Assembly: GCA_046728075.1 (NCBI GenBank)
Contig: JBKPDV010000066.1
Span: 1 to 50,447 of the forward strand
DNA: 50,447 bases
Direction of reading: 5' to 3'
Source of the DNA: Acidobacteriota bacterium
GTDB lineage: Bacteria > Acidobacteriota > Thermoanaerobaculia > UBA5066 > Gp7-AA6
The position numbers were made by a program, and so were the translations under genes. The notes beneath the pieces are model-generated. The model searched no databases, was not told the origin of the DNA, and worked only from the letters and a program-made list of their open reading frames with translations. Every line of letters starts with the position of its first letter. Positions within the stretch are counted from its first letter, which is position 1. Below are positions 2,533 to 21,171 of the stretch, piece after piece.

Positions 2533-4170
2533 TTACGGCTTGGCCGGAATGGTGAGCTTGTCGCCGGGACGAATCTGGGCCGGCGATCCGAGGCTGTTGG
2601 CCGTCATCAGGATCGCCACCGTCGTGCCGTGCTTGAGCGCGATCCGGTACAGCGTATCGCCGCCCCGGACGCGGTAGGTCTTTTTCTCCGGCGAAGGTCT
2701 GTTCGTCCGATCCGCGGCCGCCACGACTTTGCCGGCCTTCTTCTTCGGCTTTTTGCCGGTGGCGATCTGGACCTTCTCCGGCTTCGGAACCAGAATCACC
2801 CGTCCGCGCGGCAGGCGGGCCTTGGGCTCCACGGAGTTGAGCTCGGCTAAGACGGCCACCGGAACGTGGAAGCGGCGGGCGATCACGGCGAGCGTCTCGC
2901 CGCGTCGAGCCGCGTGCCGCCGGTACGAGGGAGCGATGGCGGTCGGAGCGGCCGCATAAGCGGCGAGCACGGCCTCGCGCGTTCCCATAGGCACCTTCAG
3001 CTCATAGCCCTCCGCATCGCGCGGGGTCACGTCCCCGGTCAGCTCCGGATTCAGGCGCTGGAGCTCCTCCAGGGGCGCATTTTGCCCGTCGGCGAGGTTC
3101 TTCAAACGGACGGGGCGCGTCAACTCGACCGTTTCGTACTCGAGGGGCTTTTCATACTCCACGTCGAAGCCGTAATGGGTCGGGTTCTTGGCGATCAACG
3201 TCGCCGCGATCACCGCCGGCACGTAGCTGATCGTCTGCGCCTTCAAGGCTCCCGGGGAGGCCGCCAGCTGCCAGAAGTCGGAAAATCCCGTGCGGGCCAT
3301 CGCCTTGAGGACCTTTCCCTCTCCCGCGTTGTACGCGGCGAGCGCCAGGTACCAATCGTGGAAGAGCAGGTTCAAATACTTCAGGTGTTTGGCGGCCGCG
3401 CGCGTCGCTTTCTCCGGGTCGCTGCGCTGGTCCACCACCGCGTTGGCGGTCAGTCCGTACTGCCGACCGGTTCGGAGCATGAATTGCCAGATTCCGTGGG
3501 CGGCCTTGTTGGAGCGCGCGCGAGGAAGAAACGAGGATTCGATCAGGGCCACTTGGGCGAGATCCGCCGGCACCCCTTCCTCGCGGAAGATCCGGTGGAT
3601 CATCGGAACGTAGCGGCCGGAGCGGGCAAGGCCGCGCCCGATCACGTCGTGCAGGTCGTTCTGGAAGACGGCGAGGATCCGCAGCACCGACTCATTCGCA
3701 ACGATGGGGATGTCGTAGGTCACGCCGGCGGTGTCGGTGGCGACGGCTGTCGCGGCCCGGGAGATCTCCTCGGGACTGGACACGGGCGCCTCGATCTGGC
3801 GCAGCTCCGGCGCGATACGGTCGGCGGCCGCCTCGTCCACCGGGGCCGCCAGGGCTTCGTAGCGCAGGATGGCCTCGAAAAGGTCTTCAGAAAAGTCGCG
3901 CAAGCGAGGATCGGATGGCGGGGCAGCGCCGACAGGACGCAGGGCATCGATGGCGCGCCCGAAGGCGTCGGCAGCGCAGGCTCCGTCTCCCGAGAGGGCG
4001 GCCTCGCGCCCCACATCGAACGCGCGGCTCGCAGCTTCCATCGCCGCGACTTCCGGCGAAGGCGCGGGCGGCGAAGCCTTGCGCGCCGGCGAGGAAGCGC
4101 ATCCGGCCAGTGCGAGCGCCGATGCGAGGAGCGCGTACTCCTTCGCCCGGGCACGGATCTCTTGAAGCAT
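2533..4170 (-). CDS. Membrane-bound lytic murein transglycosylase D-like lipoprotein (SLT domain plus two C-terminal LysM domains)
   Basis: SLT motifs ESSFLPRARSNKAAHGIWQFM and AAYNAGEGKV. LysM-like YRVRGGDTLYRIALKHGTTVAILMTANSL. I prefer the ATG at 4170 (MLQEIRARAKEYALLASALALAGC, lipobox LAGC) over the track start at 4248. Confidence 0.85.
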   Translation of the reverse strand: MLQEIRARAKEYALLASALALAGCASSPARKASPPAPSPEVAAMEAASRAFDVGREAALSGDGACAADAFGRAIDALRPVGAAPPSDPRLRDFSEDLFEAILRYEALAAPVDEAAADRIAPELRQIEAPVSSPEEISRAATAVATDTAGVTYDIPIVANESVLRILAVFQNDLHDVIGRGLARSGRYVPMIHRIFREEGVPADLAQVALIESSFLPRARSNKAAHGIWQFMLRTGRQYGLTANAVVDQRSDPEKATRAAAKHLKYLNLLFHDWYLALAAYNAGEGKVLKAMARTGFSDFWQLAASPGALKAQTISYVPAVIAATLIAKNPTHYGFDVEYEKPLEYETVELTRPVRLKNLADGQNAPLEELQRLNPELTGDVTPRDAEGYELKVPMGTREAVLAAYAAAPTAIAPSYRRHAARRGETLAVIARRFHVPVAVLAELNSVEPKARLPRGRVILVPKPEKVQIATGKKPKKKAGKVVAAADRTNRPSPEKKTYRVRGGDTLYRIALKHGTTVAILMTANSLGSPAQIRPGDKLTIPAKP

Positions 4171-4321
4171 CTGTACGGAAAGGTTAGCCGCCTCGAGAGC
4201 GCAAGGCAAAGGGTTTCTGGGTCCGACGATGTCTACCGGGGAGGACAACGGATGGACCGGACCCGGTCCGGGGGAAGAAACCTTCTATATCAAAATTGAC
4301 ATAACGCTTCCTCAACGTCCG

Positions 4322-4357
4322 GCTGACAGCTGATCGCTAACAGCTGACAGCTCTCAG
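4322..4357. repeat. Single heptad array, unit GCTGACA (minus-strand reading CTGTCAG)
   Basis: GCTGACA GCTGATC GCTAACA GCTGACA GCTCTCA. In gene sense it reads TAG-CTGAGAG-CTGTCAG-CTGTTAG-CGATCAG-CTGTCAG, starting immediately after the mglA-like stop. Confidence 0.88.
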
Positions 4358-5695
4358 CTACTTTCCGAAGATGTGAAACTTCAGAGAGAGCAGGAGCTTC
4401 TCGATTTCCTGCTTGGTGTGCAGGTCGATCGAGAATGTCTTCTCCTCGCCTACGGGATTCTTCTGATCGTCTTCGATTCGCAGTCCGATGGTGACGTGGC
4501 GTCCCTGCGCGAGCTCCCCCTGTGGAACCTGCACTTCGAAAATGCGATTGATCTCCTTGCGGTGATTCAGGCTCGAGGCCAGCAGATCGTCGATGGAAAT
4601 GCCGGTCGTTTGGCGGCGCGCGGCCCGGTCCGTCGACGTCGTTTCCGCCGTCGCGCTCTTTCGCAGTTTTTCGAGCTCCGCGAGGATGTCGATGTTGGAC
4701 CGGACCCGGACGTGCTTGACCGGAGGCTCCGCGATCGGCGTCGGTTCCGGAGCCGCGGGCGCTTCCGCGAACGAGATCTCCCCAATTTCCAGCGGCTCGG
4801 ACGGCACGTCCAGTTCCGGCAGCGGGGCATCGAGGGAGTTCAAGGCGTCTTCGAACTCGTTGACCGTCTCGACGTCGTCGGCGTCGAACGCCTCCACCCC
4901 CAGCAGCGTCGGCGGCGGAGGAGGAGTCGGCACGTCGAAGGGAATGGCCTCCGGCTCGGGCTCCAGATCGATCTCGACGGGCCGCGGAGGCGGCTGGACC
5001 GCCGGAACCGGGACTTCGCGCGGCGGGACCGGTCGGGGCGGCGGCGGCGGGGCGACCTCCGGCGGAATCGTGGCGGCGCTCACGCGCGCTCCGCGATCAT
5101 CTCCGAGCATTCTCTTCTTGAGCGATCTCAGCGTGAGTCGCGAGATCGCCTTCAGAGTCTCGAAGACCCCCTGGCCGAGAACCGCGCACGCTTCATAACT
5201 CTCGTACTTGTGTTCGGGATTCAGGCTCTCTTCGAGCTCCTCGACGGAGAGGATGTTGGAAAGATCCCGCTTGTTGTACTGGAAGACGAGCGGGAGATCA
5301 TCGAGCTTGATCCCGATCTCGGCGAGGTTCGAGCGCAGGTTGTTGACGCTCTCGGTGTTGGCCTCCTTCATCGCGCGCTGGGAATCGGCGACGAACACCA
5401 TGCCGTCGACGCCCTTCAGGACGAGCTTGCGAGTCGTGTTGTAGAAGACCTGGCCCGGCACCGTGTAGAGCTGGACCCGCGTCTTGAACCCCCCGATGAT
5501 GCCCACGTCCAGCGGGAGCAGATCGAAAAAAAGCGTCCGATCCGTCTCCGTCTCGAGCGACACCATCTCTCCGCGGGAGCCCGGGGAGGTGCGCCCGTAG
5601 ATGTGGTGGAGATTCGTCGTCTTGCCGCACAGACCGGGGCCGTAATAGACGATCTTGGCCGCCATCTGCATGGTGGCGTAGTTGAAGAAGACCAT
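4358..5695 (-). CDS. mglA: MglA-family Ras-like GTPase fused to a Pro-rich linker and an uncharacterised ~110-aa C-terminal domain
   Basis: The first ~195 aa align by eye to MglA: KIVYYGPGLCGKTTNL (P-loop), TDRTLFFD, LYTVPGQVFY, YNKRDL. About 250 further residues follow (APPPPPRPVPPREVPVPAVQPPPRP...VKHVRVRSNIDILAELEKLRK...LLLSLKFHIFGK). Confidence 0.85.
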   Translation of the reverse strand: MVFFNYATMQMAAKIVYYGPGLCGKTTNLHHIYGRTSPGSRGEMVSLETETDRTLFFDLLPLDVGIIGGFKTRVQLYTVPGQVFYNTTRKLVLKGVDGMVFVADSQRAMKEANTESVNNLRSNLAEIGIKLDDLPLVFQYNKRDLSNILSVEELEESLNPEHKYESYEACAVLGQGVFETLKAISRLTLRSLKKRMLGDDRGARVSAATIPPEVAPPPPPRPVPPREVPVPAVQPPPRPVEIDLEPEPEAIPFDVPTPPPPPTLLGVEAFDADDVETVNEFEDALNSLDAPLPELDVPSEPLEIGEISFAEAPAAPEPTPIAEPPVKHVRVRSNIDILAELEKLRKSATAETTSTDRAARRQTTGISIDDLLASSLNHRKEINRIFEVQVPQGELAQGRHVTIGLRIEDDQKNPVGEEKTFSIDLHTKQEIEKLLLSLKFHIFGK

Positions 5696-5759
5696 GGACG
5701 ATTATCTGCTCGCGCACACGAGCGCGTGGAAGAATTCTACCATCGCTCCCGCCGTAAGT

Positions 5760-5782
5760 CGTTTCGCCGCAACGGCGAAACG
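5760..5782 (-). terminator. Perfect 10-bp stem, 3-nt loop hairpin between the DUF2520 gene and the mglA-like gene
   Basis: CGTTTCGCCG-CAA-CGGCGAAACG. It is 35 nt downstream of the DUF2520 stop and 65 nt upstream of the mglA-like start. No U-tract, so it may be a terminator or a 5'-UTR structure. Confidence 0.35.
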
Positions 5783-5816
5783 GAGGATGGGACGCGGGGA
5801 AAGCAGAATCAAGCCC

Positions 5817-6686
5817 TCAGGGGATGGAATCGTCACCACCCTCCATAAGGAAAAGGATTTCGTCTTCCTTCCCGCGGCCCGGTGTCCGCTCGAGAGTCTC
5901 CCGCGCGAGCAGATCGTAGAGGCGCAGCAGCTCCGGCCGCCCCGCCAGAGCGGCGCGGTGGGCGCGCACCGTCTGCAGATCCCGCCTGGCCAGAGGGCCC
6001 GTAAACGCGTCTTCGAAGGGGCGGTGCGTCGCCGTCGCCGTGGCCCGCGCCGCCAGGTCGGCCAGCGCGGCCTTTGCCTCGTCCTCGGGGATGCCGATCG
6101 ACGTCCAGAGCCGGGTTGCGCAGGAGACCAATGCGAGCGCGCCTCCCGCCGCGAGAGTCGCCGCGGCGTGGTACAGAGCCTTGGATTCGGCGGCCAGGCG
6201 CCTCCCGATAGCGCCGAAGGCCCGGACGATCTGCTCTCCCGCCGAGCAGGCCGGCTCGTCCCCTTCGATCGCAACAAAAGCGCCGCGCCAGGTCTCCGAG
6301 ATTTCCCCCGAGAAGGCCCTCAGCGGATGGAGAGAGCCTACAGAGGCGCCCGAGCGCCGCAGGATCCCGATCTCTTCGGCAGACGAAGCGCCGGAGAGAT
6401 GGAAGGCCAGGCGACAGGAAACCTCCGGCGCGATTCGAGCGGCGACCGCGCTGATCGAGTCGTCCGGCACGCCGAGAAGAAGCAGGTCGCAGTCGAACGG
6501 GCCCGATCCCGCCGTGCGGGGCTGTTCTGCCTTCAGGAGGGCAACGGCGCGTTCCGCTCCCGCCTGATCGCGGGAAAAGACGTAATCGATGCGGCCTCCC
6601 GCCTCGCGCCAGGATCGAGCGAAAGCCTTCGCGGCTCGCCCGGGCCCGACGATTGCCACCGACCAGTTGAAAATGTTCTCCGGCAT
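5817..6686 (-). CDS. Rossmann-fold oxidoreductase-like protein with DUF2520-type C-terminal domain
   Basis: Only the C-terminal 290 aa of the 739-aa track ORF looks real. It starts at MPENIFNWSVAIVGPGRAAKAF (GxGxxA dinucleotide fold); the remainder of that ORF is antisense to hrcA. Confidence 0.7.
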   Translation of the reverse strand: MPENIFNWSVAIVGPGRAAKAFARSWREAGGRIDYVFSRDQAGAERAVALLKAEQPRTAGSGPFDCDLLLLGVPDDSISAVAARIAPEVSCRLAFHLSGASSAEEIGILRRSGASVGSLHPLRAFSGEISETWRGAFVAIEGDEPACSAGEQIVRAFGAIGRRLAAESKALYHAAATLAAGGALALVSCATRLWTSIGIPEDEAKAALADLAARATATATHRPFEDAFTGPLARRDLQTVRAHRAALAGRPELLRLYDLLARETLERTPGRGKEDEILFLMEGGDDSIP

Positions 6687-6698
6687 ACGCCCCCGATC

Positions 6699-6795
6699 CC
6701 CAAGTCTGAAGTCTGACATGAGGATGGAGGTGGCAGGATCTTCCCCATTGCCCGCGTCCGACGCCCTCAGACCTCCGACGTCCTCAGTCCTTGGT
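6699..6795. repeat. Degenerate inverted heptad element, unit AGTCTGA
   Basis: CCAAGTCTGAAGTCTGAC ... CCTCAGACCTCCGACGTCCTCAGTCCTTGG. The ends CCAAG/CTTGG and the TCTGA/TCAGA units are complementary. It lies in the divergent region between the DUF2520 gene and hrcA. Confidence 0.5.
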
Positions 6796-6893
6796 CCAGG
6801 CCGCCGTTGTTTCCGCGCCGCCGCGCCGCCTGTTACCATTGTCCGGGGAGGGTTCCAGGCGGTCCGGCCGGGCGGTCGGACCGAGGCGGTCAA

Positions 6894-7958
6894 ATGATGC
6901 ATCCGCTCGACATTCGAAGCCGGGCGATCTTGAAGGAGATCATCCGGCTTCACGTGGACACCGGAAAACCGGTATCGTCCCGGGCACTTTTCAAGTCCCG
7001 GCGGTTCGAGCTTTCTCCCGCTTCGATTCGCAACATCATGGCCGACCTGACCGATGCCGGATTCCTCGCCCAGCCCCACACCTCTGCGGGCCGCATTCCG
7101 ACGGATCGCGCGTACCGCGTCTACATCGACGAACTGATGAAGCATCGCCGGATCGCCCCGGATGTCCGCGAGCAGGTCGACTTCGATCTGGCCTCCGCCG
7201 GCAGCGATATCCGCGGTCTGTTCCAGGCTTCCTCGCGCCTGCTCTCGCGACTCTCCGGAGAAGTCGGTTTCGTCGTCGCTCCCGACGCGCTCCACACCGT
7301 GGTGAAGAGCCTGCGCTTCCTGTCGGTCGCGCCCGGCAAGATCCTCGTCATCCAGGTCAACGAACCGGACGTCGTCCAGTCCCGCGTTTTCGAAACCGAT
7401 GTCGACTACACGGCCTCCGAGCTCGACGCCATCTCGGACCGTCTGACGCGCGAGTTCTGCGGCAACACGCTCCACGAGGTGTGCCGGCTCCTTCTCGCGG
7501 CGGTGGCGCAAGAGAAGGCCGCCTGCGACCGGATGCTCGCCCGGGCGCTTCCCCTCGGACGTCAGGCGCTGGAGAAGCAGCAGGGGGAGGATCGTGTTTA
7601 CGTCGACGGGACGGCGCAGCTGTTCGACAAGCCGGAGTTCTCGAATCTGAAGTCCTTGAGGAGCGTTCTGCGCGCCTTCGACGAGAAGGCGCGGCTGCTG
7701 GATCTGGTCACGCGATATCTGAATTCGAAGGGGCCCTGCGTCGTGCTCGGCTCCGAGACGGGCCTTGGCGAGGAGTCTCGCCTGTCGGCAGTCTTGACCT
7801 CCTACGGCACGGGAGAGACACTGACCGGAATGCTGGGAGTACTGGGACCTGCCCGCCGGGAATATCCCCGGGTGATTCCAGTCGTGGAGCTTCTCGGTCG
7901 GGCTCTGTCGGACCGGCTGGAAGGGCGCGAGGCTCCGGCGGAGGATGATCCGGAATGA
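6894..7958 (+). CDS. hrcA: Heat-inducible transcription repressor HrcA
   Basis: MMHPLDIRSRAILKEIIRLHVDTGKPVSSRAL...IRNIMADLTDAGFLAQPHTSAGRIPTDRAYRVYIDELM. First gene of a conserved hrcA-grpE-dnaK-dnaJ order. I chose the internal ATG at 6894 rather than the track start at 6807. Confidence 0.9.
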   Translation: MMHPLDIRSRAILKEIIRLHVDTGKPVSSRALFKSRRFELSPASIRNIMADLTDAGFLAQPHTSAGRIPTDRAYRVYIDELMKHRRIAPDVREQVDFDLASAGSDIRGLFQASSRLLSRLSGEVGFVVAPDALHTVVKSLRFLSVAPGKILVIQVNEPDVVQSRVFETDVDYTASELDAISDRLTREFCGNTLHEVCRLLLAAVAQEKAACDRMLARALPLGRQALEKQQGEDRVYVDGTAQLFDKPEFSNLKSLRSVLRAFDEKARLLDLVTRYLNSKGPCVVLGSETGLGEESRLSAVLTSYGTGETLTGMLGVLGPARREYPRVIPVVELLGRALSDRLEGREAPAEDDPE

Positions 7959-8566
7959 ACGGCGACGATTCCCGCGACCGTCCGCACCCCAAGGATCCTT
8001 CCGACCGGATAGAAGTCGAAGACCCGGGTCAGACACTCGAGGACGCGCTCGCGGAAGAGGAGCAGTCCGCCATCACGGCGGCCGAGGAGAAACTGAAGTC
8101 GGTCATGCAGAACCTGGAAGAGCTTCGCGACCGGCATCAGCGCAAGCTCGCCGAGTTCGACAACATGCGAAAGCGCACGGAGCGCGAGAAGGGGGAATAC
8201 TTCCGCAACGCTCTGGCCAACTTCCTGCTCGATCTGTTGCCGATCGTGGACAGCTTTGAAAGCGCCCTGGCCCACGCCCCGCCGGAAGCTCGTCGGAGCG
8301 ACTTCGGCCAGGGAATTGCGTTGATCCGCCGCCAGTTCGCGGAGCTCTTCAAGAAATACGGGCTGGTCGAGGTGGACACCGACGGGCCCTTCGATCCGAA
8401 CCTGCACGAGGCGGTGGCCACGGAGGAAGCCGAGGACGTCCCGAAGGACACGATCCTCGAAGTGCTCCGCAAGGGATACATGCTCAACGACCGACTCCTT
8501 CGGCCGGCCTGGGTCAAGGTCGCGGTCCGGCCCGTCGAGTCCGCCCAGTCCCGGTCCGGAGAGTAG
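7955..8566 (+). CDS. grpE: Nucleotide exchange factor GrpE
   Basis: AEFDNMRKRTEREK, LLPIVDSFESAL, FDPNLHEAV, GYMLNDRLLRPAWVKV. ATGA overlap with the hrcA stop. Confidence 0.92.
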   Translation: MNGDDSRDRPHPKDPSDRIEVEDPGQTLEDALAEEEQSAITAAEEKLKSVMQNLEELRDRHQRKLAEFDNMRKRTEREKGEYFRNALANFLLDLLPIVDSFESALAHAPPEARRSDFGQGIALIRRQFAELFKKYGLVEVDTDGPFDPNLHEAVATEEAEDVPKDTILEVLRKGYMLNDRLLRPAWVKVAVRPVESAQSRSGE

Positions 8567-8569
8567 ACC

Positions 8570-10393
8570 TTGGGCAGAATCCTCGGCATCGACCTGGGCA
8601 CGACCAACTGCTGCGTGGCGGTGGTGGAAGGAGTCACGCCTCAGGTGCTGACCAACCGGGAGGGGAGCCGGACGACCCCGTCGATCACCGGATTCACCGA
8701 GGACAACGAGAGGCTCGTCGGCCAGATCGCCAAACGCCAGGCCATCACCAACCCGATGAACACCGTCTTCGCGGTGAAGCGTCTGGTCGGCCGCAAGTTC
8801 GAATCGGAGGAGACGCAGCACGCCCGCGAAGTTCTTCCCTATGAAGTCGTGCGCGCAGTCAACGGCGATGTCAAAATCCGCGCGCGGGGGCGCGAGTACA
8901 GCCCCGAGGAGATCTCCGCGTTCATCCTGAAGGAGATCAAGGAATTCTCCGAGGAGGCCCTCGGCGAGGAGATCAACGAAGCGATCATCACCGTGCCCGC
9001 GTACTTCGACGACGCGCAGCGCCAGGCCACCCGAGACGCGGGGCGCATCGCGGGTCTGGAAGTCCTGCGGATCATCAACGAGCCGACGGCGGCGGCGCTC
9101 GCCTATGGTCTCGAGCGGAAGGGAAGCGAGGTCGTCGCGGTCTACGACCTGGGCGGTGGAACCTTCGATATCTCGATTCTCGAGCTGGGCGAAGGGATCT
9201 ACGAGGTCAAGTCGACGGCGGGCGACACCTACCTGGGCGGCGAGGACTTCGACAAGAAGATCATGGATTGGATGCTGGACGACTTCAAGAAGTCCACCGG
9301 TATTGATCTGAAGCAGGACCGGATGGCACTCCAACGACTCAAAGAGGCGGCGGAGAAGGCCAAGTGCGAGTTGTCGACGGCGACGGAGACCACGATTACG
9401 CTGCCCTTCATCTCGGCGGACGCTTCGGGCCCCAAGCACATCAACCGGACTCTCACGCGGGATCGGTTCGAGACGCTCGTCGCGGATCTGATCGACCGGA
9501 CGGCAGCGCCGTGCCTGGACGCCCTGCAGGCGGCCGGACTCAAGCCCGCGGACGTCGATCAAGTCATCCTGGTCGGCGGCCAGACGCGCACACCGAAGGT
9601 CCAGCGCATGGTCGCGGAGCTCTTCGGCCGCGAGCCCAACCGCGAGATCAACCCGGACGAGGTCGTGGCGATCGGCGCGGCCATCCAGGGCGGCGTTCTC
9701 AAGGGGGAGATCAAGGACGTCGTGCTTCTGGACGTCACGCCCCTGTCGCTCGGCCTGGAGACTCATGGCGGTGTGTTCGAAAAGCTCATCGAGCGCAATT
9801 CCACGATTCCGACCAAGAACACGAAGGTGTTCACCACGGTTGCCGACAACCAGTCCGTCGTGGAGATTCACGTTCTCCAGGGCGAGCGCGAGGTCGCGCG
9901 CGAGAACAAGTCGCTCGGCCGGTTCGAGCTGGTGGGAATCCCCGCGGCCCCCCGCGGTGTTCCGCAGATCGAAGTGACGTTCGCCATCGACTCCAACGGA
10001 ATCGTCAACGTCTCGGCCCGCGACCTCGCGACCGGCAAGGCCCAGGGGATCCAGATCAATCCGGCGGGCGGGCTCTCCCAGGCCGAGATCGACAAGATCA
10101 TCAAGGAGGCTTCCGCGTTCGCCGAGGCCGACCATGTGCGGCGCGAGCTCGCGCAGCTGAAGGCGCGGCTGGAGGCGATGCTGGCGTCCAACGAGAAAGT
10201 GCTCGGGGAGTTCGGCTCGGCGCTCGCCGCCGATGAGCGCGAGCGCATCGAGGAAACCCTCAAGAGATCGCACGAGATCGCGTCCGTCGGAGACTCCCGG
10301 GACGCCCTGAACGAGGCCCTCTTCGATATGCAGGGGGTTTCCAAGGTGTTGACGAGAGTGATGCTGCAGAGAGCCGGGGCGGCGAAGGCCTGA
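8570..10393 (+). CDS. dnaK: Molecular chaperone DnaK (Hsp70)
   Basis: [45 protein letters not shown] start with GGAGAG about 7 nt upstream. Confidence 0.97.
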
Positions 10394-10397
10394 AGGA

Positions 10398-10480
10398 GTC
10401 GACAGTCGACAGTCGACAGTCGACAGCCGGGGAGAACTTCTGAAATTCAAACTGTGGACTGATGACTGTGGACTGTTGAC
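10398..10480. repeat. Inverted heptad-array hairpin, unit GTCGACA
   Basis: Left arm: GTCGACA x4 then GCCGG. 21-nt loop. Right arm: TGTGGAC TGATGAC TGTGGAC TGTTGAC. It fills the dnaK-dnaJ spacer and ends at TTG 10481. Confidence 0.9.
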
Positions 10481-10483
10481 TTG

Positions 10484-11584
10484 ATGATGAACGAAAAGCG
10501 TGATTATTACGAGATACTGAGTGTCAGGCGCGATGTTGGCGCTGCCGAGCTGAAATCCGCTTATCGCAAGCTCGCTCTCCAGCACCACCCGGACCGTAAC
10601 CCCAACAACCCGGAAGCGGCCGAACGGTTCAAGGAGGCGTCCGAGGCCTACGCCGTGCTTTCGGATCCGGACAAGCGCGCGCGCTACGATCAATTCGGAC
10701 ACGCCGGAGTCGGGGCCTCGGCCGGGAGCGGGTTTTCTGGATTTGATTTCGGCGACTTCTCCGATCTGTTCGGGGAGATCTTCGGCTTTGGCGGGGGAGG
10801 CCGCGGGCCGCGCGCGCCCGCCGGAAGCGATCTCGTCTATCGAATGGAGATCTCCTTCCGCGACGCCGCCTTCGGGTTGGAGGCTCCCTTGCTCATCTCC
10901 CGGATGGAGCCATGCGCGGAGTGCGGCGGATCCGGCGCCGAGAAGGGAACGCGTCCCAAGACCTGCAGCGCGTGCGGCGGCCGGGGACGCGAGCGCCTCT
11001 CGCAGGGTTTCCTGATGATCACGCGCCCGTGCAGCCGCTGCCGGGGAGAAGGAGTGACGATCGAGAAACTCTGCGGCGCCTGCCGCGGGCAGGGACGCCA
11101 GCGGGCGTCGCAGTCGCTGACGATCCGCATCCCCGCCGGAGTCGAAACGGGCTCGCGCCTCCGACTGTCGGGAGAGGGGGACGCCGGGAGCAACGGTAGC
11201 CCGGCCGGAGACCTCTACGTCGTCCTGACGGTGCGGCCCGATGAAGTCTTCGAACGCGAAGAGGATCACGTGATCCTCAAGCTCACGCTTCCGTATCCCA
11301 CGCTCGTTCTGGGCGGAGAGGTCACGGTGCCGACGCTCGAGGGGACCGAGAAGATCTCCATCGCGGCGGGCACGCCCGCCGGCTCGGAGGTCCGCCTTCG
11401 CGGCAAGGGCTTCGGCCGGATCGGGCAACGAGGGCGCGGGGATCTGATCGTGCGCGTCGGTGTCGACGTGCCGCAGGCCCCGTCGGCAAAAGAGAAAGAG
11501 CTGCTGCGGCAGTACGCCGAGCTCGTGGGCGCGCCGGTCGGGAAGCCGAGCATGGCCGAGAAGGCGAAGAAGATTTTCAAGTGA
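10484..11584 (+). CDS. dnaJ: Molecular chaperone DnaJ
   Basis: J domain (DYYEILSV...[14 protein letters not shown]), G/F region, and four CxxCxGxG zinc motifs. TTG 10481, ATG 10484 and ATG 10487 are all possible starts. Confidence 0.95.
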
Positions 11585-11668
11585 GCTGTCAGCTGTCAGC
11601 TTTCAGCTATCAGCCAGAATGGCACGACGTTTCCGGGAGCTGAGAGCTGAGAGCTGAAAGCTGAGAGC
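11585..11668. repeat. Inverted heptad-array hairpin, unit GCTNTCA
   Basis: TGA-GCTGTCA GCTGTCA GCTTTCA GCTATCA GCC, 21-nt loop, then GAGC TGAGAGC TGAGAGC TGAAAGC TGAGAGC-TTG. It spans exactly from the dnaJ stop to the prmA start. Confidence 0.92.
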
Positions 11669-12496
11669 TTGCCCCGTCTCAAGTACTCCCGCCTCTCGAT
11701 TCCCCGCAAGGCCAAGGACGATGCCGTCGTCGGTCTGCTGTGGCTCCACGAGACGCTCGGGTTCGCCCAGGAAGGGCGGGACCTCGTGGCCTGTTTCCGC
11801 GACGCGGACCGGGCGCGGAACGCCCAGCGGGAGCTCGAGACTCGAGGCGTGCGCTGCGAGCTCGTCACGGACATTCCCGAAGAAGACCCTCTCGAGGCGT
11901 TTCGCCTCGCCTCGCGGCCCTTCGCTGTGGGACAGCGGTTCTGGATCGATCCGGGCGAGCCTTCCGACTCACAACCTCCGTCCGACCGGATCGCTCTGCG
12001 GCTTCCCGCCTCCCGCGCCTTCGGGACCGGCGGCCATGAATCGACGCGGCTGGTCCTGCTCGCTCTGGAGGAGGAGCCGCCCGTCGACCTCGACGTTCTG
12101 GACGTCGGCACGGGCTCGGGCGTCCTGGCGCTGGCGGCCGCCGCGCTCGCGGCTCGCCGGTCGGTCGGGCTCGACACGGACTTAGACGCCGTCTGCGTTG
12201 CGGAAGAGAACCGCCGGCGGCATTCCTTCGGACAGACCGTCCGCTTCCTCGCGGCCGGAATCGAAGCCGTGGCGGGGCAGTTTCACCTCGTGCTCGCCAA
12301 CCTGCTTCCTGAGGAATTCCTCCCGATCCGCCGGCGCGTGCTCGCCCGCGTGGCCCCTCAGGGGCGCGCGATTCTCTCGGGAATCTCGCGCGATCGGGAG
12401 GACGAGGTGCTCGACCGCGTCCGGTCCGAGCGCTGGCGGCTGGCGGGACGGCGCAGCGAGAACGAATGGACGAGCCTGACTCTCGAGCGCGCCTGA
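11669..12496 (+). CDS. prmA: Ribosomal protein L11 methyltransferase PrmA-like
   Basis: FGTGGHESTRLVL, DVLDVGTGSGVLALAAA. Conserved dnaJ-prmA-rsmE order. TTG start; there is an in-frame TGA at 11648. Confidence 0.85.
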   Translation: MPRLKYSRLSIPRKAKDDAVVGLLWLHETLGFAQEGRDLVACFRDADRARNAQRELETRGVRCELVTDIPEEDPLEAFRLASRPFAVGQRFWIDPGEPSDSQPPSDRIALRLPASRAFGTGGHESTRLVLLALEEEPPVDLDVLDVGTGSGVLALAAAALAARRSVGLDTDLDAVCVAEENRRRHSFGQTVRFLAAGIEAVAGQFHLVLANLLPEEFLPIRRRVLARVAPQGRAILSGISRDREDEVLDRVRSERWRLAGRRSENEWTSLTLERA

Positions 12497-14394: not shown

Positions 14395-15585
14395 ATGCAT
14401 ATAAATGACCTGCTCAAGATCGCTGTCGAGCGAAAGGCGTCGGACCTCCATCTGAAGGTGTCGGCGTTCCCGGTTCTGCGCATCGACGGGGTGCTCACGC
14501 CCTTAGCCGACGTGCGGCGTCTGATGCAGGAAGACACGATCGCGATGGCCTTCTCGATCATGTCGGCCCGCCAGAAGGAGAAGTTCAAGAACGACTTCGA
14601 GATCGACATCGCGTACTCGGTCCCCAATCTGGGCCGTTTCCGGTGCGCCATCTTCCAGCAGCGGGGCACGGTCGGACTCGTTCTGCGCGTCATCCCGTCG
14701 CGGATCTTGAGCATCCGCGAGCTCTTGCTCCCGCCGGTGATGGAGAAGATCTGCACGGAGCAGCGCGGCCTCGTTCTCTGCACGGGCACCACCGGCTCGG
14801 GCAAATCCACGACGCTCGCCGCGATGATCGACCACATCAACGCGACCCGCAACGAGCACGTGATGACAGTCGAGGACCCGATCGAGTTTCTTCACCGGGA
14901 CAAGAAGTCGATCATCAACCAGCGCGAGGTGGAGGTCGACACGAAGGGCTTCGGGGTGGCGCTTCGAAGCGCACTGCGCCAGGACCCGGACGTCATTCTC
15001 GTGGGCGAAATGCGCGACTACGAGACGATCGAGACGGCTCTGACGGCGGCGGAAACAGGACATCTGGTCTTTTCCACGCTTCACACTCTGGACGCGACGG
15101 AAACGATCAACCGCATCATCGCGGTCTTCCCCCCGCACCAGCAGAAGCAGATCCGCCTACAGCTCGGAGCGGTCTTGAAGGCGGTCATCTCGCTGCGTCT
15201 GATGCCGCGGGCCGACGGCCTCGGCCGAGTTCCGGCCGCCGAGATCCTGCTGCGGACCTCCTATGTCCGGGAGTGCATCGAGAACAAGGAAAAGACCAAG
15301 CTCATCAAGGACGCGATCGCGGCGGGCACCTCGCAGTATGGAATGCAGACCTTCGATCAGTCCCTCTACCAGCTCTACAAGTCCGGCCTCATCACCCTGG
15401 AAGAGGCCCTGCGGCGCGCCACGAACCCCAACGAGTTCAAGCTCAAGATTCAGGGGATCCAGTCCACCTCCGACCTGGCGCGCGAGGAAATGGATGCCGA
15501 GCTGGAGGCGCCGAGCGACTTCAACCCGATGGAGTCGGAAGAGTCGCCGTTTGATTTTTCGAGGCAGCCGCCCGGGACCCGATGA
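14395..15585 (+). CDS. pilT: Type IV pilus retraction ATPase PilT
   Basis: ASDLHLKV, GTTGSGKSTTLAAMI, DPDVILVGEMRD, GHLVFSTLHT, and the AIRNLIRE-like block. Confidence 0.93.
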   Translation: MHINDLLKIAVERKASDLHLKVSAFPVLRIDGVLTPLADVRRLMQEDTIAMAFSIMSARQKEKFKNDFEIDIAYSVPNLGRFRCAIFQQRGTVGLVLRVIPSRILSIRELLLPPVMEKICTEQRGLVLCTGTTGSGKSTTLAAMIDHINATRNEHVMTVEDPIEFLHRDKKSIINQREVEVDTKGFGVALRSALRQDPDVILVGEMRDYETIETALTAAETGHLVFSTLHTLDATETINRIIAVFPPHQQKQIRLQLGAVLKAVISLRLMPRADGLGRVPAAEILLRTSYVRECIENKEKTKLIKDAIAAGTSQYGMQTFDQSLYQLYKSGLITLEEALRRATNPNEFKLKIQGIQSTSDLAREEMDAELEAPSDFNPMESEESPFDFSRQPPGTR

Positions 15586-18912: not shown

Positions 18913-19611
18913 ATGAAGATCAGGATCGGCGTCGCTTTTCTGGTGGCCCTCGCGTGCTCTCTGGCCGCGCGGGCGGTCGTGCGCATCGAGGTGCGCGACG
19001 GCAAGACCATCGTTTACAACGACGGCATCGGAGAAGCCTCCCACGCGGCTCTGGCCGAGAGCGACTCCTGGCTCGCCTCCCGGATCCGCATTCCCTCGCT
19101 CTATGACGGGTTGATCGACAAGGCCGCCGAGGCCAACGCGATCGATCCGAAGCTGGTCAAGTCCGTCATGCTGATCGAGTCGGCTTTCAACCCGGTTGCC
19201 CGCTCGCGCAAGGGCGCGCGTGGGTTGATGCAGCTCATGCCGGAGACGGCCGTCCGCTACGGCGTCAGCAACATCGTCGACCCCGCGCAGAACATCTCCG
19301 GAGGGGCGCGCTACCTTCGCGACCTGCTCGACGTCTTCGGCGGGGATCTGGTCAAGTCTCTCGCGGCGTACAACGCGGGCGAGAATGTCGTGCTTCGCTA
19401 CGGCGGAGTCCCCCCCTATCAGGAAACGCAGCTCTACGTTCGCAAAGGATTGACCGCGTACTACGGCAAGTCCGTGCTCGGAGGGGGTTTCGGCCTGCCG
19501 AGCTCGCGAACCTGGGCCGCGCCGGGGCGACCCGTGCGCGTCACGCGCGACAAGAACAATCGCCCGGTCATTACGACCGAGCTCGCCTCGCGCGGGACGC
19601 GGCGTAGTTAA
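18913..19611 (+). CDS. Secreted lytic transglycosylase (SLT domain)
   Basis: Signal peptide MKIRIGVAFLVALACSLAARA. MLIESAFNPVARSRKGARGLMQLMP, AAYNAGENVV. Confidence 0.85.
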   Translation: MKIRIGVAFLVALACSLAARAVVRIEVRDGKTIVYNDGIGEASHAALAESDSWLASRIRIPSLYDGLIDKAAEANAIDPKLVKSVMLIESAFNPVARSRKGARGLMQLMPETAVRYGVSNIVDPAQNISGGARYLRDLLDVFGGDLVKSLAAYNAGENVVLRYGGVPPYQETQLYVRKGLTAYYGKSVLGGGFGLPSSRTWAAPGRPVRVTRDKNNRPVITTELASRGTRRS

Positions 19612-19635: not shown

Positions 19636-21171
19636 ATGTCGCGAGTTCCGGGAAGCCTTCCTCCTTTGGACCGCGGAATCTTCTTCGTCCACATTTCCCG
19701 CGCGCGCAAGCATCTGGCCGAGGAACGGTTTGATCTCGCGCGAAAGGAGCTCGAGCTCGCGGATCTGGCCAAGCCCAACGACGAAGAAGTCTTGAACCTC
19801 CTGTCGGTCGTCGAGTTCAAGCGGGGCTACTACAACGAGGCGGCGCAAGCCGCCAGGCAGCTCCTCGCCGCCAACACACACTCGGCGGTCCTCCATTGCA
19901 ACCTGGGGTTGATCCTGTTCAAGGCCGGTGTGCTCGGGGAGGCGGAGCAGGAGCTGCGCCGGGCGATCGAGTTGAAGCCCGATCACGCCCGAAGTCATCT
20001 CTACCTAGGTTTGCTCTATCGGATGCGCGGAAAACTGGGGCTCGCGGTCGAGCATCTGAAATTCGCGGGAGCGCAGCGCGTGGTCGGCGAAATCGAAGAG
20101 AGCCTGCGGCGCTCGCCTCGAGAGTACCCGGGTCGAGCTCAAGCGACCGCGCCCACGACTCCGCGCCTCGCCTCTCCGCGTCCTGTTCCCCTACCCGTGG
20201 AGCCTGCGCCCGCTGTCGCGGAACCTCCGGTCGCCGCGGAACCTCCGGTCGCCGTTGCTCCGCCCGCCGAACCGGAAAAACCGGTGGTGATCACCGCCCC
20301 CCAGCCCGTTGTGGATGCCGAGGAGACGAATCCCAGCTTTCGCCCCGCCGACAGGCCGGCGCCATCGGCCCCGGACGAAATCACGGAACGGGTCCATGTC
20401 TCGCCCCTGCCATCTCCGCCCGTTCCCGTGGCGTCTCCGGTGACGGAGCCGGGCTTGCCTCCGGGAGCGCCTCTCGACGCCACTCTCTCGCGCGAAACGG
20501 CGCCCGACCCGCGGCCCGGATCTTCCCCCTGGGATACGGGGGGCCGTCCTCTCTTCCACGTCCGGCCCGACGGAGGTCTCGAGGTGGCGTCGCGCGGGGT
20601 CGTTTTCGTGCGCAAGGGCTCGGTCGTCTGGTACAGCGGAAAAATACGATTCGCCGCCGAGCCCTCCTTCCGCGGAACCCGCCTGGAAAAGATTCTGCGG
20701 GCCGACGGCCGGGGATACCTGTTCGTCAACGACCCCGGTCGCGCGGCCTTTCGCCGCGATCTCGCCGGGCAATCCCTGTATCTGGAGGGGAGCCGTCTGC
20801 TCGCGCTCGATCACGGCCTCTCCTTCCGCCTGGAGCCGATTCATGATTTTCGAATGAATCGTCGGGTGGACATCCTGAAGATCCAGGGGCGCGGCAGCGT
20901 GGTCCTGTCCGTCGGAGGCCCTCTGCTGGCCCACGAGGTGACGGCGGAGTTTCCACTGAACGTGTCCTCGCGCGATCTGGTCGCCTGGACAGGCGACGTC
21001 GTTCCGTCAGTGCTCGAGGATCGTTTCCTGGAAGAGGTCATGATGCCCGACGTGGGCTCGGCCCCGAAAATTCGATTCGAGGGAATCGGAACGGTCTTGA
21101 CCGAGCCCCCGCGTCCGCGCCGGCGGGCGAGCGATCTGGCGAGGCCGTCGGACGCCGACCGGCGTTCGTAG
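19636..21171 (+). CDS. TPR domain - Pro-rich linker - AIM24 (DUF124)-like C-terminal domain protein
   Basis: N-terminal TPR-like helices (EAEQELRRAIELKPDHARSHLYLGLLY), the linker PVPLPVEPAPAVAEPPVAAEPPVAVAPP, and a C-terminal beta-rich region resembling AIM24 (ILRADGRGYLFVNDPG..., ILKIQGRGSVVLSVGGPL). Confidence 0.7.
   Translation: MSRVPGSLPPLDRGIFFVHISRARKHLAEERFDLARKELELADLAKPNDEEVLNLLSVVEFKRGYYNEAAQAARQLLAANTHSAVLHCNLGLILFKAGVLGEAEQELRRAIELKPDHARSHLYLGLLYRMRGKLGLAVEHLKFAGAQRVVGEIEESLRRSPREYPGRAQATAPTTPRLASPRPVPLPVEPAPAVAEPPVAAEPPVAVAPPAEPEKPVVITAPQPVVDAEETNPSFRPADRPAPSAPDEITERVHVSPLPSPPVPVASPVTEPGLPPGAPLDATLSRETAPDPRPGSSPWDTGGRPLFHVRPDGGLEVASRGVVFVRKGSVVWYSGKIRFAAEPSFRGTRLEKILRADGRGYLFVNDPGRAAFRRDLAGQSLYLEGSRLLALDHGLSFRLEPIHDFRMNRRVDILKIQGRGSVVLSVGGPLLAHEVTAEFPLNVSSRDLVAWTGDVVPSVLEDRFLEEVMMPDVGSAPKIRFEGIGTVLTEPPRPRRRASDLARPSDADRRS

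Follow-up and report, generated by a model that had tools for sequence, protein, structure and literature searches.

A long-form MglA GTPase of the Thermoanaerobaculia with a variable linker and a conserved, uncharacterised C-terminal module

The 50,447 bp stretch at positions 1 to 50,447 of contig JBKPDV010000066.1 (called the window here; assembly GCA_046728075.1, an Acidobacteriota bacterium of the lineage Gp7-AA6) carries a gene, mglA-long, for a 445 amino acid (aa) protein that joins an MglA-type GTPase to a long C-terminal tail. The tail, an in-frame extension of ∼250 aa noticed in a first-pass annotation of the sequence, is real and ends in a conserved module; the linker between this module and the GTPase (G) domain is, by its sequence, disordered, rich in proline and acidic residues, and quickly changing between lineages. 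The long form appears to be the MglA form throughout the Thermoanaerobaculia, which is a class of Acidobacteriota, and its module is, as far as the tools applied here see, an uncharacterised family. The gene and the landmarks of its G domain are listed below; subgroup A is the window's own among three subgroups (A, B, and C).

4358..5695, minus strand: long-form MglA gene, taken from the open reading frame (ORF) list; ATG start, 445 aa, stop codon at 4358-4360
5108..5695, minus strand: MglA GTPase domain, residues 1-196, defined by matches to MglA proteins in the PDB; mean pairwise identity 0.90 in the subgroup
5618..5641, minus strand: P-loop GPGLCGKT, residues 19-26, including G21; invariant columns
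5537..5539, minus strand: R53, the intrinsic arginine finger of MglA-type GTPases (role from PMC4316618); invariant
5450..5464, minus strand: TVPGQ, residues 78-82, with the MglA-specific Thr78 and the catalytic Gln82; invariant
5264..5275, minus strand: G4 motif NKRD, residues 141-144; invariant columns N141, K142, R143, and D144

The solved structures of Myxococcus xanthus MglA (E ∼6e-72) and Thermus thermophilus MglA (∼4e-68) align end to end with residues 1-194, which are 60.8% identical to the M. xanthus protein. The identity to MglA itself suggests that the G domain is MglA proper rather than a member of the SofG subfamily, which would be marked by orthology to the M. xanthus paralogue SofG, considered below, and by interaction with bactofilin. 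The P-loop, TVPGQ, and NKRD motifs on which the first-pass annotation based its near-canonical MglA are all present, and G21, R53, and Q82 are each kept in 125 of 125 full-length members. All the sequence features of group-1 MglA proteins are found, namely a Ras-like P-loop and NKxD motif, a G3 motif with T78 and Q82, and the R53 finger; a threonine replacing the usual aspartate at the start of G3 (TxxGQ) is described as an MglA feature in PMC3000849. Two other features typical of the group, single-domain size (150-240 aa) and coupling to mglB, the latter not obligatory, are not found. Group-1 proteins are further marked by GTP hydrolysis that MglB stimulates and by a conformational switch that depends on the nucleotide. 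Judged by its motifs, this region is a catalytically complete MglA that looks able to hydrolyse GTP. Pfam reports only Arf, at residues 73-185 of the 445 aa protein, NCBIfam gives a likewise generic small-GTPase signal, and neither has any match past residue 195. No transmembrane (TM) or hydrophobic segment is present in the protein (the highest 19 aa Kyte-Doolittle mean is 1.14). Many such proteins have been named "signal recognition particle receptor subunit beta" by the Joint Genome Institute (JGI; P0077, P0079, P0080, and others) and are misannotated MglA-type GTPases. The depth of soil metagenome contigs rises 10- to 50-fold exactly over positions 5427-5475 (TVPGQ) and 5623-5671 (P-loop), and near-identical motif DNA is evidently present in many other soil organisms.

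Searching with the full-length protein gave over 120 clusters of proteins 440-520 aa long that align over 100% of the product of 4358-5695 at 63-99% identity; the long-form family as a whole ranges from 393 to 650 aa. One intact ORF running from MVFFNY to LKFHI is present in 70 of 82 related loci; in the others a frameshift or the end of the contig interrupts it. ENA and JGI assemblies made independently of each other contain four near-identical proteins that are all 445 aa long and differ by substitutions only, independent soil and rhizosphere contigs that span 4358-5455 and 4357-5260 show ∼50 substitutions and no gaps, and the single indel in independent soil contigs is an in-frame deletion of 3 nt. 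The frameshift or assembly error that the first-pass annotation had allowed for was thus looked for and is excluded by the intact frame across clusters, loci, and independent contigs, and it is exceedingly improbable that either accident fused an mglA to a separate ORF lying downstream. What would favor such an artefact is that the C-terminal 163 aa, used alone as a query, gave 75 proteins of only 93-290 aa, some of them on contigs of hundreds of kb. On two of these contigs, however, the MglA part lies immediately upstream, separated by frame changes only; dnaK, grpE, and hrcA nearby are also fragmented, as is typical of indel-rich long-read assemblies, and several of the short proteins begin at an internal methionine just where the G domain ends. 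A stand-alone C-terminal protein of 93-290 aa was accordingly rejected as the product of broken gene calls on short or frameshift-rich contigs. The long-read Acidobacteriota metagenome-assembled genome (MAG) contigs with frameshifts in mglA-long are those of loci L001/L057, L002, L053, L059, L066, L072, and L194, with frameshift sites at about locus positions 9100-10550 (5100-6900 in L001 and L002), and they give rise to false short proteins in public sets.

Three distribution scans, each using one genome per species and with possible overlap between their counts, confirmed 167 genomes with the window's module type and 84 and 125 with two diverged types (∼376 matches, overlap not removed). Of the records listed, nearly all bear the label Acidobacteriota, Thermoanaerobaculia, Thermoanaerobaculales, Thermoanaerobaculaceae, or Ca. 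Sulfomarinibacteraceae. The few remaining ones are assigned to Holophagae or, in one case each, to Terriglobia, Chondromyces, and Deltaproteobacteria; these stray labels may be binning or labelling noise. Carriers of the fusion include the chromosome-level Thermoanaerobaculia MAGs OY970380.1 and OY970284.1. Among 242 loci, each extending ∼10 kb to either side of a match, only one MglA-like gene per locus is present.

Beyond the G domain, the tail falls into the following segments.

4910..5101, minus strand: variable Pro-rich linker, residues 199-262, predicted to be disordered; mean pairwise identity 0.34
4808..4900, minus strand: acidic motif FDAxDVETVNEFExALNSLDAPLPE of the window's subgroup, residues 266-296; mean identity 0.74
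4763..4789, minus strand: short motif EIG(D/E)(V/I)SFAE, residues 303-311; F309 invariant, and E303, I304, S308, and A310 nearly so
4652..4720, minus strand: start of the module, strand and helix VKHVRVRSNIDILAELEKLRKSA, residues 326-348, the hallmark of the family; mean identity 0.90 in the subgroup
4604..4651, minus strand: variable basic loop, residues 349-364; mean identity 0.47, predicted local distance difference test (pLDDT) score <50 at model residues 32-43
4361..4603, minus strand: mixed helix/strand part, residues 365-445, ending in LLLSLKFHIFGK; mean identity 0.75 in the window's subgroup

Residues 197-325 are 27% Pro and 21% Asp plus Glu and have a net charge of −22. The length of the linker varies about threefold across the family (116-334 aa), and in neither of two AlphaFold2 (AF2) models, one of the full-length protein and one of the module, do its residues 199-262 have secondary structure. 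The acidic motif, whose invariant columns are F270, V278, E280, E282, A284, L285, L288, P291, and P293, is predicted to form a short helix (276-289) in the low-confidence full-length model. It is confined to the window's subgroup, and the other subgroups carry different linker motifs (one has, for example, ISAAALARAAEEGV, and another has STLAKxAxVDAxIIxDAPVA). The window's version, FDADDVETVNEFEDALNSLD (266-296), bears a loose likeness, judged only by eye, to the acidic helix at the C-terminus of M. xanthus MglB (SPFAEISDDDIDNLFSE). The spacer of residues 297-325 that holds EIGDVSFAE has a mean identity of 0.49.

The module (residues 326-445, ∼120 aa) is nearly neutral (net charge +2). Its opening strand and helix element, VKHVRVRSNIDILAELEKLRK in residues 326-348 (mean identity 0.90 in the window's subgroup), is the sole place where columns are invariant or nearly so across all subgroups (model positions V9, D16, E20, and L21, together with V11, L24, R25, and T29). 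The AF2 model of the module, built on a diverse alignment of 72 sequences, has a mean pLDDT of 76 and predicts a helix at residues 334-350; residues 381-445, at 85-96, are its sole high-confidence part. The region had been described as a folded domain of ∼110 aa: its conservation holds up, but it is better seen as three parts (326-348, 349-364, and 365-445), of which AF2 is confident only at 381-445. A membrane anchor formed by a C-terminal amphipathic helix is unlikely, as the last 15 residues alternate in a strand-like manner in all subgroups and no hydrophobic segment is present.

When 1.84 billion representative proteins were searched with a profile of the module (E ≤ 0.001), only 171 of them matched, none with a further domain. 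Every full-length match begins with an MglA domain, and the matches that do not include MglA are all of at most 318 aa and start within the linker, the sole exception being a spurious repeat protein. As far as searched, then, the module is found only at the C-terminus of MglA. One 235 aa protein on a 1.4 kb JGI contig (P0004) has an N-terminal Ser/Thr kinase fragment (PF00069/PF07714) joined to the acidic motif and the module; this is most likely a chimeric contig rather than a second architecture.

Comparisons with known families were uniformly negative. Pfam searches with 72 module sequences (E ≤ 1) gave no consistent family, none of the 25 listed, the most matched of 31 families, occurring in more than two members, and Robl_LC7 was not matched by any of the 72. 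The module profile had no match among PDB sequences, Foldseek of the AF2 module model (predicted template modelling score, pTM, 0.45) against the PDB gave a best E of 0.28 with a template modelling score <0.25, and hhalign of the module against MglB gave a probability of 0.35%. Because the hhalign value is so low and Robl_LC7 is not matched, the module is not a detectable Roadblock domain in sequence; the Foldseek comparison, made with the low-pTM monomer model, gave no match to the alpha-beta-alpha sandwich of the Roadblock fold. PilZ domains are marked by the motifs RxxxR and (D/N)xSxxG. A PilZ reading of the window protein's RAARR was rejected: the sequence is not conserved (homologues have, for example, KPRRPA) and PilZ is not among the Pfam matches listed. 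The first-pass annotation could not assign the region to a family, and the Pfam, NCBIfam, PDB sequence, Foldseek, and MglB profile comparisons leave it so. It had also reckoned with a match to some domain already described and commonly found on MglA paralogues; fusion of the module is indeed routine, class-wide in the Thermoanaerobaculia, but it is no known domain, and the case is therefore stronger rather than weaker.

In a 2014 survey, 390 of 449 MglA genes were coupled to mglB, that is, lay within four genes of it (PMC4316618). Here the M. xanthus MglB sequence, checked to be identical to PDB 6h5b chain B, was used as a phmmer probe (E ≤ 10) and found no MglB or Roadblock match among the 33,762 ORFs of the window and the 242 loci (3.96 Mb), nor therefore anywhere in the 50 kb window. 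The absence of mglB beside the gene, as first read from the window, extends to all 242 loci with their flanks of ∼10 kb, and by the within-four-genes criterion the long-form MglA is an orphan MglA throughout the class. Orphan MglA-family proteins have precedents. The M. xanthus paralogue SofG, at 239 aa, also exceeds a bare G domain; it is not stimulated by MglB, has no cognate GTPase-activating protein (GAP) identified, and helps to position PilB and PilT (PMC4316618). It is much shorter than 445 aa and is set apart from the long form by description. Bdellovibrio bacteriovorus MglA likewise works without an adjacent MglB, which has been lost from that genome, and a TPR protein and RomR give it its polar placement (PMC3983030); it is, however, a single-domain protein of 197 aa whose S21 is predicted to lock it in the GTP-bound state (PMC3983030), whereas the long form has G21 in all 125 full-length members and a C-terminal module of its own.

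The genes around mglA-long were compared in 233 loci (80 of subgroup A, 77 of B, and 76 of C). The features of the window that enter the comparison are these.

2533..4248, minus strand: downstream gene for an MltD-like lytic transglycosylase with an SLT and two LysM domains (Pfam SLT 6.8e-24, LysM 4.8e-22) and a lipoprotein-like N-terminus (...LALAGC)
5817..6716, minus strand: upstream gene for a Rossmann-like/DUF2520 protein (Pfam DUF2520 2.6e-26), start codon uncertain
6807-12496, plus strand: hrcA-grpE-dnaK-dnaJ-prmA heat-shock cluster, divergent from the string of DUF2520, mglA-long, SLT, and comM genes
14395-15585, plus strand: PilT-type ATPase gene, ∼9 kb from mglA-long

The SLT/LysM gene is the neighbour best conserved in all three subgroups, whereas the others change. 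It lies directly downstream on the same strand in 77 of 80 loci of subgroup A, 71 of 77 of B, and 67 of 76 of C (∼90%), with median gaps of 138, 29, and 171 nt, respectively; the gap in B is consistent with an operon. No terminator-like site is present between the two genes in the window, and scanning 4050-6000 for promoters and terminators gave no hits. The DUF2520 gene lies upstream on the same strand in 72 of 80, 74 of 77, and 29 of 76 loci of A, B, and C. Pfam thus bears out both neighbours named in the first-pass annotation, but the murein transglycosylase, which was treated there as irrelevant, is in fact the one that is conserved class-wide. The grpE-to-prmA part of the heat-shock cluster is kept in A and C and absent from B, and hrcA was detected only in A. 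The PilT, GGDEF, and two TPR proteins that had been listed for the window are indeed there, but at distances of 9-37 kb (the GGDEF and TPR proteins at 14-37 kb), and the PilT gene is syntenic in 60 of 80 loci of subgroup A compared with 1 of 77 in B and 0 of 76 in C; it is therefore a matter of subgroup-level synteny and not a family-wide link. Two further genes of the window are of some interest in their own right.

18913-19611, plus strand: second, small SLT protein (232 aa) with what looks like a signal peptide, encoded immediately after alaS, so that two SLT-family lytic transglycosylases lie within 16 kb
19636-21171, plus strand: 511 aa ORF with N-terminal TPR repeats and a C-terminal AIM24 domain (PF01987), an unusual combination

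In Myxococcus, free MglA is positioned by the separate proteins MglB and RomR/RomX. The most likely reading of the long form, though one we rate as somewhat short of an even chance, is that the module is a tethered docking or localisation element and the linker a flexible tether. The canonical MglA switch domain at the N-terminus, which is predicted to hydrolyse GTP, would be held on a disordered leash of variable length, and the module would dock it at a fixed cellular site or partner, for example the pole or an envelope-associated complex; positioning would thereby be built into the protein itself in place of separate positioning proteins. We infer this from architecture and conservation. 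The conservation in subgroup A is modular in the manner of a tether (mean identity 0.90 in the GTPase, 0.34 in the linker, 0.90 in the strand and helix, and 0.75 in the rest of the module) and is counted in its favor, as are the threefold range of linker lengths, the linker motifs that differ by subgroup, the class-wide occurrence of the fusion, the restriction of the module to MglA, the intact switch, and the lack of an MglB-like ORF nearby. FtsZ and the eukaryotic Ras and Rab proteins are built in a similar way, with a GTPase, a variable disordered linker, and, at the C-terminus, a short conserved element for docking to a membrane or partner; the parallel is an analogy without homology, and the module here is a 120 aa unit rather than a short peptide or lipidation signal. 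RomR offers a precedent for the design, as its linker and its C-terminal region are each enough for polar targeting (PMC3441718). It begins with a receiver (REC) domain, continues in an unstructured Pro-rich linker specific to the lineage, and ends in a conserved region without homology to characterised domains (PMC3441718), and so is like the long form, by description, in having a folded signalling domain, a variable Pro-rich linker, and a conserved C-terminal region. It differs in that its N-terminal domain is a receiver and its C-terminal region is described as alpha-helical and Glu-rich, whereas here the first domain is a GTPase and the module is mixed helix and strand with a net charge of +2. 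The conserved pairing with the MltD-like transglycosylase suggests, from synteny only, that the process under control involves the envelope or peptidoglycan. In M. xanthus, AgmT, which is MltG-like and so of another transglycosylase family, connects MglA-controlled gliding complexes to peptidoglycan (PMC11444678); this parallel is an analogy and not evidence.

Several points weigh against a tethered docking element. The AF2 monomer of the module reaches a pTM of only 0.45 with few of its strands paired, and because of this the module may not be an autonomous domain; the model suggests that a partner or a second copy could be needed for it to fold fully. The full-length AF2 model (59-sequence alignment) has a pLDDT of 47 and is poor in the G domain too, which makes any contact of the tail with the G domain unreadable. 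The transglycosylase synteny lies within one class and could partly be shared descent, and any link between that enzyme and MglA must be indirect because the enzyme is periplasmic and MglA is cytoplasmic with no TM segment. An mglB, a romR, or a second short mglA may sit elsewhere in these genomes, the absence of mglB and of a second MglA-like gene holding for the ∼10 kb flanks, and both the docking partner and the localisation of the module are purely putative.

It is rather unlikely, though the main alternative, that the tail acts instead as an in-cis regulator, with the module or one of the conserved acidic motifs of the linker folding back onto the G domain as a built-in GAP, guanine nucleotide exchange factor (GEF), or element resembling a guanine nucleotide dissociation inhibitor (GDI), in place of MglB and/or RomR-RomX. 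All members keep G21, R53, and Q82 and so look GAP-dependent, unlike the Bdellovibrio protein with its S21 (PMC3983030); since G21 is kept, whereas the MglA that manages without MglB in that organism is predicted to stay locked with GTP, the long form presumably still needs a GAP. The 242 loci have no mglB within 10 kb, against 390 of 449 coupled genes in the survey (PMC4316618), and the best-conserved element beyond the G domain is a short strand and amphipathic helix with an almost invariant Arg. MglB and other Roadblock/LC7 GAPs (including Response_reg-Robl_LC7 fusions) are the partners expected for an MglA, and at ∼120-160 aa they are near the module in size; the module, however, shows no Roadblock signal (hhalign, Robl_LC7, and fold comparisons above). 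The loose likeness of the subgroup A acidic motif to the MglB C-terminal helix would fit, but a motif specific to one subgroup cannot be a universal mechanism. Furthermore, if the GAP were always attached, some additional control would be required for a GTP-bound state to arise.

A stronger form of the same idea, which seems unlikely, is that linker and module together are a built-in substitute both for MglB as GAP and for RomR/RomX as GEF and positioning factor; the protein would then be a self-regulating, self-localising switch, and its module would have a new fold.

A role in cell-wall remodelling, growth, or division instead of motility, in which the long MglA would place peptidoglycan turnover together with the MltD-like transglycosylase and the DUF2520 protein, is quite improbable. 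The order of mglA-long followed by the SLT/LysM gene is the best conserved in all three subgroups, the two genes are separated by a median of only 29 nt in subgroup B and by no terminator-like site in the window, and PilT synteny is restricted to one subgroup; on the other hand, those characterised group-1 MglA proteins that the cited papers name all act in motility, pili, or predation (PMC4316618; PMC3983030), and gene order within a single class is weak functional evidence. Such a role is a matter of the biological process, and each of the molecular mechanisms proposed here could go with it.

Self-association appears more doubtful still: the strand-rich C-terminal part could oligomerise, or could with the acidic Pro-rich linker drive condensates or patches, and multivalent MglA clusters would result in place of docking to a separate partner. 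The combination of high pLDDT at 381-445 with few paired strands and a pTM of 0.45 would, in the model, be typical of folds completed in oligomers, and the long, low-complexity, highly charged linker is of a kind seen in bacterial polar hub proteins, but no coiled-coil or repeat signature is seen.

Set beside canonical MglA (195 aa in M. xanthus, 196 aa in T. thermophilus), the long form shares the P-loop, R53, T78, Q82, NKRD, and 60.8% identity of the G domain to the M. xanthus protein, and differs in its 445 aa length, with linker and novel module, and in having no mglB within 10 kb. The principal survey of small GTPases in prokaryotes took proteins of 150-240 aa from the genomes of April 2012 (PMC4316618); a 445 aa form would have been missed by its design because of that size limit and because the class is known mostly from more recent MAGs. 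No paper on MglA in the Thermoanaerobaculia or Acidobacteriota came up in full-text literature searches, and one aimed at an MglA that has a disordered linker and a C-terminal domain gave nothing relevant. What is new is a conserved, lineage-wide appendage on a known switch, absent from the searchable literature.

Among the Ras-like GTPases of bacteria, MglA serves as the model for polarity, and its regulation is understood almost wholly from single-domain proteins that work with a separate MglB and RomR/RomX. A widespread soil and sediment lineage has a different layout, in which the same switch carries a conserved module on a permanent tether and lacks an mglB nearby. At a minimum, the module merits a family entry of its own, and the label "signal recognition particle receptor subunit beta" should go. 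If the tail localises or regulates the switch, it would be a new answer to the problem of spatial control of bacterial small GTPases and also a compact system for testing the effects of tethering on a GTPase cycle; were the protein a self-contained switch, it would represent a previously unrecognised mode of control for a bacterial Ras-like GTPase.

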